DNA of 64,000 nt, from the sequence record NC_031934.1; one strand, given 5' to 3'. The notes under the pieces were generated by a model. The model was not told the DNA's origin. It worked only from the letters and a program-made list of their open reading frames with translations, and made no database searches. Source of the stretch: Escherichia phage MX01. Shown here piece by piece: positions 30,840-35,093 of the stretch (position 1 is its first letter; each line of letters opens with the position of its first letter). A program made the position numbers and the translations under genes.

Positions 30840-31412
30840 TTACCATTCCAATGCTTTCTTTTTCAAGTCTTTTTGTTCTTTAACATTTTTGGTTACGGAT
30901 TTCAGGAACTCGTCTGTAACCAACCCTTTCATCTTCTTAAGCATTGCCGGAAGATGGCCTTTAATTTTATAAGTCTCGAGATAACGATAAGCGTCATCAT
31001 TATTAATTGAATGGTATTTCATCAATAAACGAGTAATAAAAACTACACTAACTTCATCATCATGGGCCTTAGCCCATTTACCAAATCTCTTACCCTTAGG
31101 AACGGCATGCAAAAGATAGTTGAAATGGCTTTGGTCATCAAGTTTCAGACAGTTAACCATTGCAGCTTGCATAATGCAATCTACATGTTGGCTCAAACTA
31201 TTATCAAGCCAAAATTGATTGTAGTTTTCCGACTGAGCCAAGTTACGTTGTTTCTTACCATATGTGATATCGTTCATAATGGCAAACAGTTCGTTTTCAG
31301 CCTTTTCTTTAAATGAATCGGCCAAGGCTTGAATTGCAGCGTCGTTACGTTGTTTCCAAGCAACTTCATGTTCGTTCAGTTCAACGTCATCATCAAAAAG
31401 ACTTATAGCCAT
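30840..31412 (-). CDS. 62: clamp loader small subunit
   Basis: 190 aa; between regA and 44. Confidence 0.8.
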   Translation of the reverse strand: MAISLFDDDVELNEHEVAWKQRNDAAIQALADSFKEKAENELFAIMNDITYGKKQRNLAQSENYNQFWLDNSLSQHVDCIMQAAMVNCLKLDDQSHFNYLLHAVPKGKRFGKWAKAHDDEVSVVFITRLLMKYHSINNDDAYRYLETYKIKGHLPAMLKKMKGLVTDEFLKSVTKNVKEQKDLKKKALEW

Positions 31413-32380
31413 TGGAGCTCCAGAGCAAGTTGGATGAACAGATAAGTCATGTGAATTTCTGGGTTAGCCGCAATACCGTGGTATTGGTTATTTTCACCGA
31501 CAATTTCATACATTCTAACAATGCTTGGTCCAGGCAATTTACCATAGAGTTCGTTAGCCAGTGACATAATAAAGTTGGAATAGTCATTGACATGGCGTGG
31601 AGCTAATGCACGGAGTTCTTTAAAGTTTTTATCTTTCAGTGCAGCCACTACTTCATCGATAGGAGAATTGGTATTCATTACAATACTCAGAATGCCTGTA
31701 TCGATTTTACCACTGGATGAGTAACGGTCTAGTTGGTTAACTGTTTTACGGAAGTCAGGAAAGTTTTGTTTAACTAAGGCAGCAATAACTTTAAGGTCTT
31801 CGACTTCGATATTTTCGTTTTTACAGATTGCTACAGCACGATGAATCATTTCTTTCATCATGGATGTTTGGTCGGCCGGAGTGGCTTCACCAAATTTAAT
31901 AACACGACAACGAGATTGAAGTGGACCGATAATACCATCAATATTGTTTGCTGTAATAATTACAGAACAGTTTGAGGAATAGGCCTCTAAGAACGAACGA
32001 AGGTGGCGTTGAGCTTCAGCAACACCGGCACGGTCGAATTCGTCGATAACAATTACCTTACGCTTACCTTCGATAGATTTAGAAGATGCAAAACGAGTAA
32101 GTTCATTACGAACGAAATCAATACGGCAGTCAGAACCGTTAACAAACAGCATGTCTGAATTTGTATCAGCACACAATGCTTTAGCTACGGTAGTTTTGCC
32201 TGTGCCTGGTGAAGCAGAGACTAGGATAATGTTAGGGATTAGACCCTTATTAACAATGGCTTGGAGGGTTTCTTTATCATGTGCAGGCAGAATACACTCA
32301 GATAAAGTACCTGGACGATATTTCTGTTCCCACATGAAGTCATTTTCATTAATAGTTAAACCATTTACCACTTTACTCAT
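31403..32380 (-). CDS. 44: clamp loader large subunit (AAA+)
   Basis: Walker A SPGTGKTT, SRC motif; start set to ATG with GAGGA SD (track start is TTG). Confidence 0.88.
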   Translation of the reverse strand: MSKVVNGLTINENDFMWEQKYRPGTLSECILPAHDKETLQAIVNKGLIPNIILVSASPGTGKTTVAKALCADTNSDMLFVNGSDCRIDFVRNELTRFASSKSIEGKRKVIVIDEFDRAGVAEAQRHLRSFLEAYSSNCSVIITANNIDGIIGPLQSRCRVIKFGEATPADQTSMMKEMIHRAVAICKNENIEVEDLKVIAALVKQNFPDFRKTVNQLDRYSSSGKIDTGILSIVMNTNSPIDEVVAALKDKNFKELRALAPRHVNDYSNFIMSLANELYGKLPGPSIVRMYEIVGENNQYHGIAANPEIHMTYLFIQLALELQWL

Positions 32381-32939
32381 TATTATTTTCCTCATTAAAA
32401 TGTTTAACAATTTTATTCAATTCGTTTGCAGAATAATTATATCCATAATTTTGTAAAAGCGTACTAAATCTACCCTTTTTAGGCATACCAAGTTCTATCC
32501 AAATCTTACGGAGCTCTTCATAATTCTGCCATATTTCAGAGCGTTGCCATTTAGAGCAATTAAGCTTATGGCTTTCGGAAAATGTTCTTGATTTTCCGGT
32601 CCTGGTGATAGACATCTTACGTTTAGATTCAGCACTGTGGAAATCTACACCACCTGGACCACCGGGAGCTTTATTAACACAACGTGAACCATACTTGGCA
32701 ATACCTTCTTTAACAAGGGCCTCTTCAATAAGTTTGGCTTCTTTAAATGTATCCGTTTTGTGGACAACCTCAATACTAAACTCCCAAACACCAGGAGTTA
32801 TAGCATTTTCTCGCTTGCATTTCTTAACAAATTTACCAGTACCATAATATTCTTCAGGAGTAACACGGTGCCTACCGAAATAATGGTAGACATCCTTAGT
32901 TTTGGTATTTGTTATTGTATTATGATAGCAAATGTACAT
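32373..32939 (-). CDS. GIY-YIG homing endonuclease (Seg-like)
   Basis: N-terminus YICYHNTITNTKTKDVYHYFG fits GIY...YIG module; inserted between 45 and 44; TAATG overlap with gene 45 stop. Confidence 0.65.
   Translation of the reverse strand: MYICYHNTITNTKTKDVYHYFGRHRVTPEEYYGTGKFVKKCKRENAITPGVWEFSIEVVHKTDTFKEAKLIEEALVKEGIAKYGSRCVNKAPGGPGGVDFHSAESKRKMSITRTGKSRTFSESHKLNCSKWQRSEIWQNYEELRKIWIELGMPKKGRFSTLLQNYGYNYSANELNKIVKHFNEENNNE
32373..32939 (-). mobile_element. free-standing GIY-YIG homing-endonuclease insertion between genes 45 and 44
   Basis: Endonuclease ORF precisely fills the 45-44 junction, which is contiguous in T4. Confidence 0.5.
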
Positions 32940-33637
32940 TAGAACGAGTGGCTTGAGCCTGCTTCCATAGCTAGTACGTAAGAAGCTTGTGAACCTTCAA
33001 ACTTAGCTGCGAAACGAGCATCTTGACCTTCACCGCGTGCCCATAACAATACATGGTAATCAGCCGGCATCATTTTCATATTAGTTTTGTTAATAATGAA
33101 TTTGAATTCAGGGCCATCATGGTCTGCAACCACTAAGGAATACAACGGTCGAGTCAATTCTTTATCGTCAACTTGTTTATAACCGTTGATAACGATTTTA
33201 CCATTGTCTGTAGTGATTGCAAATGTATCAATACTCAATCCAGAGGATACACGCATCAGTTGCTGGTAGTCTTCAGCTTTAAGGTCAAAAATAACTTCAG
33301 CGACCGGGAATGGAATCTTTTTGCTTGGGAATGCAATTGTGCTTGGGTCGGCAATAGGCCACTTAATAGTTGAACGTTGGTCTTTAATAATTAAAGTGGT
33401 TTGGTCTTCACTTACCGAAACTTCAGCACTTTCAGATACCAAAGACAGAATACTTAAGAAACCGTTCAGGTCATAGATTGCGGCTTCGATATCAAAGGTA
33501 TCGGATACGGTAGCTTCACCATAACTTGCACCTGTTACAGAACGAGTTAGAATAGTGTTACCAGGTTTAAGCATGATACCTGGATTAATACCGGAGAAGT
33601 TTTTCAGAATGTTCAGAGTTTCTTTAGAGAATTTCAT
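32939..33637 (-). CDS. 45: sliding clamp
   Basis: 232 aa; similarity to recalled T4 gp45 throughout. Confidence 0.9.
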   Translation of the reverse strand: MKFSKETLNILKNFSGINPGIMLKPGNTILTRSVTGASYGEATVSDTFDIEAAIYDLNGFLSILSLVSESAEVSVSEDQTTLIIKDQRSTIKWPIADPSTIAFPSKKIPFPVAEVIFDLKAEDYQQLMRVSSGLSIDTFAITTDNGKIVINGYKQVDDKELTRPLYSLVVADHDGPEFKFIINKTNMKMMPADYHVLLWARGEGQDARFAAKFEGSQASYVLAMEAGSSHSF

Positions 33638-34076: not shown

Positions 34077-34138
34077 AATATTTTCTCTCATTTGGTTGGT
34101 AAATGTATTATAAATCAATATTTTAAAGCATTTAACGT

Positions 34139-34339: not shown

Positions 34340-34376
34340 ATCTTTATCGGTCGCTGTATCAAATAAGGATTTGATA

Positions 34377-35093
34377 ATGAATTATAAATCAATATACGAA
34401 AAGCTTATTCAACGAGCAGTTAATAGAAATTTAACTACCTATAAAGAACGTCATCACATTATACCACAATGCATGGGTGGAACGGACGACGCTTTAAACT
34501 TGGTAGACTTAACACCTGAAGAACATTACTTGGCTCATCAGTTGTTAGTTAAAATCCATCCAGATAATGCATCGTTAGTCTATGCGGCAAGAATGATGAC
34601 AGTTAGCTCACCAAAAGCTGATAGGTCTAAAAATAAATTATTTGGATGGCTTCGTCGTAAGAATTCAGAAGCCCAAAAGGATAAAGAATTCTCGGAAGAA
34701 ACCAGAAAGAAAATGTCAATTTCCGCTTTAAAAAAGCCTAGAGTTACCTGTCCACACTGCGGTAAAACTGGATTGGTAGGCAATATGAACAGATGGCATT
34801 TCGATAACTGCCCTAAAGGCCCTAATAAAGTAGACCGCTCTATATCTGAAGAGCAAAAATTAAAAATAAAGAAAGGCCTAGAAAACATGGTCCATAAAAT
34901 TGTGGAATGTGAATTCTGTGGCCTTTCAGGAAAATCCTGTGTTATTGCCTCTCATAAAGTTTTTTGTAAGAAAAATCCTAACGGGCGCAAAAAAACAGAA
35001 AAGAAGGTAGAATGCCCTCATTGTGGTAAACAAGGGAATTCCGGTAATATGAATCGTTGGCATTTCGATAACTGTAAAATGAAGCCTCAATAA
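34377..35093 (+). CDS. HNH homing endonuclease with C-terminal zinc-finger repeats
   Basis: HNH motif ERHHIIPQCMGGTDDALNLVDLTPEEHYLAH; two CPHCGK...NMNRWHFDNC repeats; only large plus-strand gene; AAGGA SD; TATAAATA upstream. Confidence 0.8.
   Translation: MNYKSIYEKLIQRAVNRNLTTYKERHHIIPQCMGGTDDALNLVDLTPEEHYLAHQLLVKIHPDNASLVYAARMMTVSSPKADRSKNKLFGWLRRKNSEAQKDKEFSEETRKKMSISALKKPRVTCPHCGKTGLVGNMNRWHFDNCPKGPNKVDRSISEEQKLKIKKGLENMVHKIVECEFCGLSGKSCVIASHKVFCKKNPNGRKKTEKKVECPHCGKQGNSGNMNRWHFDNCKMKPQ

Follow-up and report, generated by a model that had tools for sequence, protein, structure and literature searches.

A probable Seg-type homing endonuclease gene at the junction of the sliding-clamp and clamp-loader genes of the T4-like Escherichia phage MX01

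Which kind of gene occupies the junction between the sliding-clamp gene 45 and the clamp-loader gene 44 of Escherichia phage MX01, and is it a mobile element or a resident of this locus? The phage is T4-like and belongs to the genus Dhakavirus (the JS98 group); the window that we have analysed is a stretch of 64,000 nucleotides (nt) of its sequence (NC_031934.1). An earlier note on this DNA had placed an endonuclease gene between genes 45 and 44, and a minus-strand open reading frame (ORF) of 188 codons is indeed found there, with both flanking genes confirmed by Pfam. The encoded protein is an exact match to MX01_51 of phage MX01, deposited as ‘hypothetical protein’; the UniRef name of the identical protein is “Homing endonuclease”, and the family genes of MX01, SHP1, Bp7 and VR20 are deposited as ‘hypothetical’ or ‘unknown’. 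We favour, and consider probable, the interpretation that the product of the ORF is a homing endonuclease of the free-standing Seg type, with SegE and SegD as its closest counterparts, for which cleavage and homing are predicted; the earlier note had likewise taken the gene for a free-standing GIY-YIG homing endonuclease, and a SegE-like fold and a sporadic distribution among relatives now support that reading.

The assignment of the protein is carried by comparisons of profiles. A word-indexed search of 5.8 billion protein sequences has returned only 4 close relatives, while a profile of 5 family sequences (A2), compared with 1.84 billion representatives, has retrieved 468 relatives, mostly aligned over residues 2-120; a wider profile (A3) consists of 61 aligned relatives, among which PF19835 (SegE_GIY-YIG) is matched by 23, PF01541 by 13 and NUMOD3 by 34. 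Against T4 proteins, the hidden Markov model (HMM) of A2 scores 33.6 bits for SegE (residues 2-103) and 20 bits for SegD; with the HMM of A3, the scores are 130 bits for SegE and 125 bits for SegD, and I-TevI is recognised with 16.6 bits. With hhalign, the probability is 96% for SegE (E 4e-9) and 83% for I-TevI (E 8.5e-6); the latter alignment pairs residues of the ORF and of I-TevI as Y5/Y6, Y20/Y17, G22/G19, E72/E75 and N89/N90. The direct BLASTP comparison with SegE gives an E value of 1e-4, with 26% identity over 96 residues, and the ‘homing endonuclease’ family PHROG 314 (phrog_314) matches the ORF with E 8.5e-16; PADLOC has given no match.

A GIY-YIG nuclease domain with intact Tyr/Tyr/Glu/Asn catalytic positions makes up the first ~95 residues of the protein. 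Among the 61 relatives, Y5 is conserved in 59, Y20 in 60 and G22 in all, and E72 and N89, the positions of the catalytic Glu (the metal ligand) and Asn, are each kept in 60; the near-invariant residues of the clade (Y5, Y20, G22, H24, Y31, G33, G35, E72, N89, G93 and G94) are all present in the ORF, where the spacing from GIY to YIG is 14 residues, compared with 10 in I-TevI. The AlphaFold model, obtained with the 61-sequence alignment, has a predicted local distance difference test score (pLDDT) of 89.8, reaching 94-98 over residues 1-90, and both of its domains are confident; it shows the compact alpha/beta fold of the superfamily, i.e. a three-stranded antiparallel sheet flanked by helices. 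The structures matched by this model include the GIY-YIG enzyme PD-T4-3 (7.1), UvrC (5.0) and T4 EndoII (4.9), the ranking is the same for an earlier model from a shallower alignment, and a Foldseek comparison with viral models leads to Seg-like and homing endonucleases. The three-helix bundle of the C-terminus is matched by homeodomain, Myb and transposase helix-turn-helix (HTH) domains. The earlier claim of a GIY-YIG endonuclease has thus held on evidence from profiles and structure (the family HMM and hhalign matches to SegE, and the Pfam links of the 61 relatives), and the alignment to Seg proteins and I-TevI that it had suggested, obtained here for SegE, SegD and I-TevI, recovers the fold.

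As is characteristic of Seg genes, the ORF stands alone between conserved genes and is either present or absent among close relatives. Over 24 kb, the nearest records of the phage collection are KIT01, Bp7 and SHP1, with 95-96% identity. In Dhakavirus, the gene is carried by about 5 of ~40 phages, namely SHP1 and LQ5 (99% amino acid identity), Bp7 and PSD2002 (80%), and vB_EcoM_005, whose copy is truncated; about 35 records (JS98, JS10, IME08, ABTNLsp5 and others) have the flanks only. In Gaprivervirus, it occurs in one of 34 records, that of VR20 (65% identity); an unclassified 169-kb contig from a Hadza gut metagenome has a copy with 55-56% identity, and the metagenome contig L016 has a VR20-like copy at the same junction, this being the only further VR20-like locus found in scans of IMG/VR and of a metagenome collection. 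Every relative that we have found is situated between genes 45 and 44, in at least three phage lineages (the two named genera and the Hadza contig). We have also compared a chimeric probe, which joins the C-terminus of gp45 to the N-terminus of gp44, with all phage records; in a sample of these, spread over Tequatrovirus, Mosigvirus, and Klebsiella, Acinetobacter and Aeromonas phages, among others, all records that match both halves of the probe span 614-753 nt, i.e. an empty junction. The gene is therefore sporadic at this site, not universal, which is the outcome of the comparison of junctions that the earlier note had proposed.

The truncated copy of vB_EcoM_005 (L002 1504..2940, corresponding to ~32365..32475 of the window) is without the last ~35 endonuclease codons, the ribosome-binding site of gene 44 and the first 5 codons of gene 44; its record contains a single 478-residue ‘clamp loader’ coding sequence, i.e. 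an in-frame fusion of the endonuclease with gp44, within which gp44 might still be initiated at an in-frame ATG (MLLNGLTINENDF...). Either the element is decaying in this phage or the record has been misassembled; as a truncated derivative, the copy would illustrate the decay stage of the homing cycle. A distant Seg-like paralogue with about 27% identity occurs next to uvsY in IME08, IME281 and IME341, which are free of the endonuclease at the 45/44 junction; in IME08, it is located between uvsY and uvsY.-2 (L006 2501..3112) and is unannotated.

The empty junctions of T4, JS98, SP18 and VR7 follow a common plan: a stop codon, a stable hairpin, a short spacer, (A)UGAGGAAA and AUG. The absence of the gene looks ancestral by this comparison, and most close relatives keep a spacer with such a hairpin. 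In T4, which the earlier note had described as contiguous at this point, there is indeed no gene between 45 and 44, although the two are separated by a hairpin-containing spacer of about 50 nt. In the empty Dhakavirus alleles of JS98, IME08 and ABTNLsp5, the spacer measures 61 nt, with the hairpin GGGAGGAATYTCCTCCC, and gene 44 has a shorter 5′ end (encoding MLTVNNNEF). The claim that the endonuclease gene had been inserted exactly between genes 45 and 44 is correct as regards its position at the junction, but the alignments show a replacement that reaches into gene 44: a block of 600 nt takes the place of 88 nt of the empty allele, namely the hairpin, the spacer and codons 1-9 of gene 44. The left boundary differs between lineages; in VR20, compared with SP18, the insert lies between hairpin-GGAG and AUGAGGAAAAUAAUAAUG, and the hairpin is retained, whereas the window, Bp7 and the Hadza contig have lost it, so that their ORF directly adjoins the stop codon of gene 45. 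In Dhakavirus, no fixed differences between carriers and non-carriers, i.e. neither co-conversion tracts nor immunity substitutions, have been found in the flanks outside 32339..32938.

With the 600-nt block comes a ‘long’ N-terminus of gp44, which in Dhakavirus reads MSKVVNGLTINENDF, as opposed to the ‘short’ MLTVNNNEF. The N-terminus of gp44 is dimorphic in both genera, as long M(S/T/A)(K/T)V(V/I)NGLT(I/V)NE(N/S)DF or short MLTVN(N/D)(N/K)EF. The long form accompanies the endonuclease in the window (32339..32380), Bp7 and VR20, and occurs without it in Gaprivervirus phages of the SP18 type; a strict linkage of the long form to the endonuclease is refuted both by SP18 (long, without the ORF) and by the Hadza contig (the ORF with the short form).

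The ORF overlaps both of its neighbours. On its upstream side, its start codon (32939-32937) and the TAA of gene 45 (32941-32939) have one A in common, so that the TAATG overlap reported in the earlier note is borne out by the sequence of 32941-32937; the same arrangement is found in Bp7, SHP1 and LQ5, and is replaced by a TAA-GTG abutment in the Hadza contig. On its downstream side, the ORF had been said to end 2 nt before the start of gene 44, which is incorrect: its TAA (32375-32373) is located 5 nt downstream of the ATG of gene 44 (32380-32378), and the two reading frames overlap by 8 nt, ATGAGTAA. The start of gene 44 consists of GAGG (32393-32390) followed by the ATG, reading MSKVVNGLTINENDFMWEQKYRPG; its Shine-Dalgarno sequence is hence contained in the last endonuclease codons (...F-N-E-E-N-N-N-E*). 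GAGGAAA(A/U)UAAU..AUG is likewise found in the empty alleles of JS98, SP18 and T4, and by sequence comparison the embedded initiation region resembles the published operators of RegA, AAAUUAUGAUU in T4 gene 44 and the RB69 consensus AAUAAUAAUAA from in vitro selection (SELEX) (PMC3014915). No RNA structure that would mask the start of either the endonuclease or gene 44 has been found, the fold energies being no better than those of shuffled sequences (z -0.06 and +0.51).

Signals for separate expression of the endonuclease are scarce in the window: pattern scans have found neither a late promoter (TATAAATA) near the ORF nor, immediately in front of gene 45 or of the ORF itself, a convincing middle promoter, and the ORF is not preceded by a Shine-Dalgarno sequence; generic scans for sigma-70 promoters and terminators are uninformative in this AT-rich DNA. 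The nearest good T4-type middle promoter (AATGCTTTA, N11, TATAAT; 34132..34107, minus strand) is located between 45.2 and rpbA, upstream of rpbA; the spacer between rpbA and gene 45 is shorter than that of T4, so that the window shows no evident P45 of the T4 type just before gene 45. Within the ORF, the last ~40 codons are unusually conserved in the four diverged alleles, third positions included: third-position identity is 0.77-1.0 in the last 13 codons, compared with about 0.3-0.6 elsewhere. This conservation is partly due to the gene 44 initiation region that is embedded there. The same part of the ORF contains a box that resembles the binding site of MotA, for which a consensus and a spacing of 12 +/- 1 are published, with P45 and P45.2 but no P44 in T4 (PMC2988021); GTACGCTTTT-N13-TATAAT could, speculatively, be an embedded middle promoter for gene 44. 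Its ACGCTT and TATAAT are kept in all four alleles, which argues for a promoter only weakly, since the conserved bases also form preferred Tyr, Asn, Thr and Leu codons. The coordinates of all features are collected in Table 1.

Table 1. Features of the endonuclease locus in the window (ORF coordinates include the stop codon; aa, amino acids).
Feature	Coordinates	Strand	Description and basis
Seg-type GIY-YIG homing endonuclease ORF (probable)	32373..32939	-	188 aa; ORF list, PHROG 314, family HMM
GIY-YIG catalytic domain, aa 1-95	32655..32939	-	ICY (3-5), YFG (20-22), H24, Y31-G-T-G35, E72, N89, G93-G94
Flexible linker, aa 96-133	32541..32654	-	NUMOD3-like repeats HSAESKRKMSITRTGKS, FSESHKLN; pLDDT 56-81
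Putative DNA-binding module, C-terminal, three-helix (HTH-like), aa 134-188	32376..32540	-	
TAATG, gene 45 stop / endonuclease start overlap	32937..32941	-	Sequence; no Shine-Dalgarno upstream
Gene 44 translation initiation region, inside last 7 endonuclease codons	32373..32393	-	GAGG, AAAAUAAUA, AUG, endonuclease TAA
Candidate MotA-type promoter	32436..32464	-	MotA-box-like GTACGCTTTT, 13-nt spacer, TATAAT; pattern scan
Presence/absence block	32339..32938 (600 nt)	-	Endonuclease ORF and ‘long’ gene 44 5′ end (codons 1-14, MSKVVNGLTINEND)
Gene 45, sliding clamp, upstream neighbour	32939..33637	-	Pfam gp45-slide_C 1.2e-34, DNA_PPF 2.3e-12; PHROG 223
Gene 44, clamp-loader large subunit, downstream neighbour	31403..32380	-	Pfam Gp44_lid 2e-36, Gp44_C 2.2e-29, AAA; PHROG 168

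From these elements, a mode of action can be proposed. Since the endonuclease has neither a promoter nor a Shine-Dalgarno sequence of its own, it would be transcribed as a passenger within the rpbA-45-44-62 unit, and its translation, coupled to gene 45, would be weak and would depend on termination-reinitiation at TAATG. If the enzyme behaves like SegE and I-TevI, its C-terminal module may hold it on the empty allele when a relative without the endonuclease infects the same cell, and the GIY-YIG domain, tethered in this way, would then cut near the 45-44 junction of the empty genome. As the flanks have no carrier-specific substitutions, self-immunity would come from the replacement of the ~88 nt, and hence the predicted target is the ~88-nt segment that is unique to the empty allele. 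Recombination-dependent repair of the T4 type, a pathway that has been reviewed (PMC2988022), would then copy the 600-nt cassette, including the alternative 5′ end of gene 44. The last endonuclease codons contain three elements of the essential gene 44, namely its Shine-Dalgarno sequence, the RegA-operator-like AAUAAUAAU and its start codon, and a simple loss of the endonuclease gene would for this reason be disfavoured; seg genes of T4 that embed expression signals of the downstream gene, and that are retained as a result, have been described (PMC2988022).

Several results weigh against a working, mobile homing endonuclease. The ORF alone has no GIY-YIG match in Pfam even at E <= 1, its only matches being a sub-threshold NUMOD3 (E 0.067) and a spurious neuraminidase; it lies below the gathering thresholds of PF01541 and PF19835, and its link to Pfam is only transitive, through relatives that are connected to it by profiles. 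NCBIfam has given no match, searches of PDB sequences with the ORF and with the 61-sequence profile have returned no GIY-YIG entry, and neither hhalign nor the HMM alignments place a residue opposite R27 of I-TevI; candidate counterparts are R23, R25 and K39, the last being a position with K or R in 44 of the 61 relatives. The close family is also very rare in public data and not obviously an aggressive invader, and the divergence of the endonuclease between genera, which is like that of gp45, could also fit a long vertical residence with repeated loss. The failure of the Pfam models and the unplaced arginine, together with the missing promoter and Shine-Dalgarno sequence and the truncated derivative in vB_EcoM_005, are what would be seen if the ORF were a catalytically dead or decaying remnant, persisting only because the ribosome-binding site and the start of gene 44 lie inside it. 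We regard such a remnant as quite unlikely: dN/dS (the ratio of nonsynonymous to synonymous divergence) is 0.11-0.36 over the whole ORF between the four diverged alleles, and 0.07 against the near-identical SHP1, the near-invariant clade residues are all kept, Y5, Y20, E72 and N89 included, and both domains are modelled with confidence. The protein is thus maintained under purifying selection, and conservation in several phages with low dN/dS indicates that the ORF is not a product of chance; the ten closest relatives beyond the family are equally missed by the GIY-YIG models of Pfam. The HTH-like module and the tight translational coupling to genes 45 and 44 could alternatively belong to a DNA-binding regulator of the 45-44-62 replication operon, with a GIY-YIG-like fold and no nuclease function; this is most improbable, given that the catalytic-site residues are conserved, that most close relatives replicate without the gene, and that SegE, its nearest homologue among characterised proteins, is known as a homing endonuclease (PMC2988022).

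There is also the view, which we hold to be unlikely, that the ORF is a nuclease gene of the Seg kind but a resident and essentially non-mobile one, inherited vertically from the ancestor of Dhakavirus, Gaprivervirus and related phages, lost many times, and kept either for a benefit to the phage (exclusion of competitors, a recombination hotspot, or amplification against defences of the kind lately reported for SegB) or because the expression of gene 44 depends on it. Between genera, the identity of its protein (65% for VR20 and 56% for the Hadza contig) runs parallel to the identities of gp45 (73% and 64%) and gp44 (82% and 67%), the site is always the 45/44 junction, the initiation region of gene 44 is embedded in the 3′ end, and SegB is reported to aid immune evasion (PMC13096335). 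Within Dhakavirus, by contrast, the synonymous divergence (dS) between the window and Bp7 is 0.85 for the endonuclease, i.e. 7-fold that of the adjoining gene 44 (0.12) and about 2-fold that of gene 45 (0.375), which is unexpected for neighbours that have been inherited together; the endonuclease alleles appear to be much older than the surrounding DNA, as expected if they had moved or been exchanged horizontally. The homologous hairpin-spacer-Shine-Dalgarno plan of the empty junctions in T4, JS98, SP18 and VR7 points to ancestral absence, not to many precise deletions, and the lineage-specific left junctions, with the hairpin present in VR20 and gone in the other three, are likewise at odds with a single resident gene. 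We therefore return to the free-standing homing endonuclease as the preferred reading.

A further-reaching version of the homing endonuclease reading, which we consider doubtful, would take the 600-nt cassette as the mobile unit, controlling the expression of an essential clamp-loader gene, with addiction-like retention, a target at the 5′ end of gene 44 and the long gp44 as the immunity allele. The cassette would then supply an alternative gp44 N-terminus, the gene 44 ribosome-binding site, the RegA-operator-like stretch and possibly a middle promoter of the MotA type; the enzyme would be directed at the ‘short’ allele of gene 44, at its 5′ end or its translation initiation region; and the long immunity allele could be passed on in short co-conversion tracts that need not include the endonuclease, whence the phages of the SP18 type, with long gp44 and no endonuclease, would be explained.

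The gene order on the minus strand at 27.6-36.8 kb of the window is 43, regA, 62, 44, the ORF, 45, rpbA, 45.2 and 46, with one plus-strand ORF between 45.2 and 46. The latter (34371..35093, 240 aa) is a second homing-endonuclease gene, of the HNH type and MobE-like: its product has 36% identity to T4 MobE (E 2e-38), matches PHROG 655 (E 4.9e-69) and carries repeated CxxC...W-H-F-D-N-C zinc-ribbon motifs. The gene is ~96-100% identical to the copy of Bp7 and absent from SHP1, LQ5, JS98, IME08, ABTNLsp5 and vB_EcoM_005. It is 1.4 kb away from the endonuclease of the 45/44 junction, and the two assort independently among relatives: SHP1 and LQ5 have the endonuclease without the MobE-like gene, and Bp7 has both, with a different endonuclease allele. 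Another presence/absence polymorphism of the replication gene cluster is located at ~30470, between the start of gene 43 and regA, where the window lacks a 211-nt block with a small ORF (‘orf47’); the block is present in JS98, IME08, Bp7 and SHP1, absent in ABTNLsp5 and LQ5, and represented by 112 nt in vB_EcoM_005.

New in this locus are the sliding clamp / clamp loader junction as an insertion site for free-standing homing endonucleases of T4-like phages, and the two-sided overlap of the endonuclease ORF with replication genes that are essential; with the initiation region of one of these inside the ORF, the locus would be a clean example of resistance to deletion. The protein belongs to a SegE/SegD-like clade that the present models of Pfam and NCBIfam miss. 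The system lends itself to experiments, as there are natural phages with and without the gene whose flanks are about 95-99% identical, and only about 90 nt are left as the candidate target. A specialist would not be surprised by the assignment, because UniRef already labels the MX01 protein and T-even phages are rich in such genes; the gene is an ordinary kind of phage passenger, and no concept is changed by it.

Among known systems, the review of Edgell, Gibb and Belfort lists no T4 endonuclease at the 45/44 junction (PMC2988022), and in our literature searches no such endonuclease was described for Bp7, JS98-like phages or MX01. The closest likeness is to SegE and SegD: the catalytic domain is homologous, with about 26% pairwise identity to SegE, the clade signature Y..YxG(K/R)H...YxG(S/T)G...E...N..GG is common to all three, and in each case a free-standing gene occupies a short junction between conserved genes, sporadically among relatives. 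The sites differ, segE being located at inh/uvsW and segD at 23/24 (PMC2988022); the ORF also differs from SegE in being too divergent for the Pfam model to score, and from both in the longer beta-hairpin between the GIY and YIG motifs, of 14 residues, and in the overlap of both of its ends with neighbouring genes. With I-TevI, the endonuclease of the T4 td intron (catalytic domain in PDB 1LN0), the Y, Y, E and N catalytic positions align, and with both I-TevI and the Seg proteins the ORF appears to have in common a modular plan of GIY-YIG domain, flexible linker and C-terminal module, the last being putatively DNA-binding in the ORF and an HTH in I-TevI. Unlike I-TevI, the ORF is free-standing and not intron-encoded, has no zinc finger in its linker, is only about 13-17% identical, and leaves the counterpart of R27 unaligned.

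The embedding of signals for an essential downstream gene inside the endonuclease coding region is a likeness to segG, segA and segE of T4, where, for segG, the gene 32 promoters that it contains favour its retention (PMC2988022); in the ORF, the embedded signal is a translation initiation region and not a mapped promoter, the promoter being a weak candidate. The C-terminal half is unrelated to that of SegE and resembles instead the C-terminus of T4 MobD, to which the linker and the C-terminal region (aa 76-188) have 33.6% identity, and NUMOD3-type repeats are common to the ORF and T4 MobE; both Mob proteins differ from the ORF in the catalytic domain, which is HNH in MobD and MobE and GIY-YIG in the endonuclease of the 45/44 junction.

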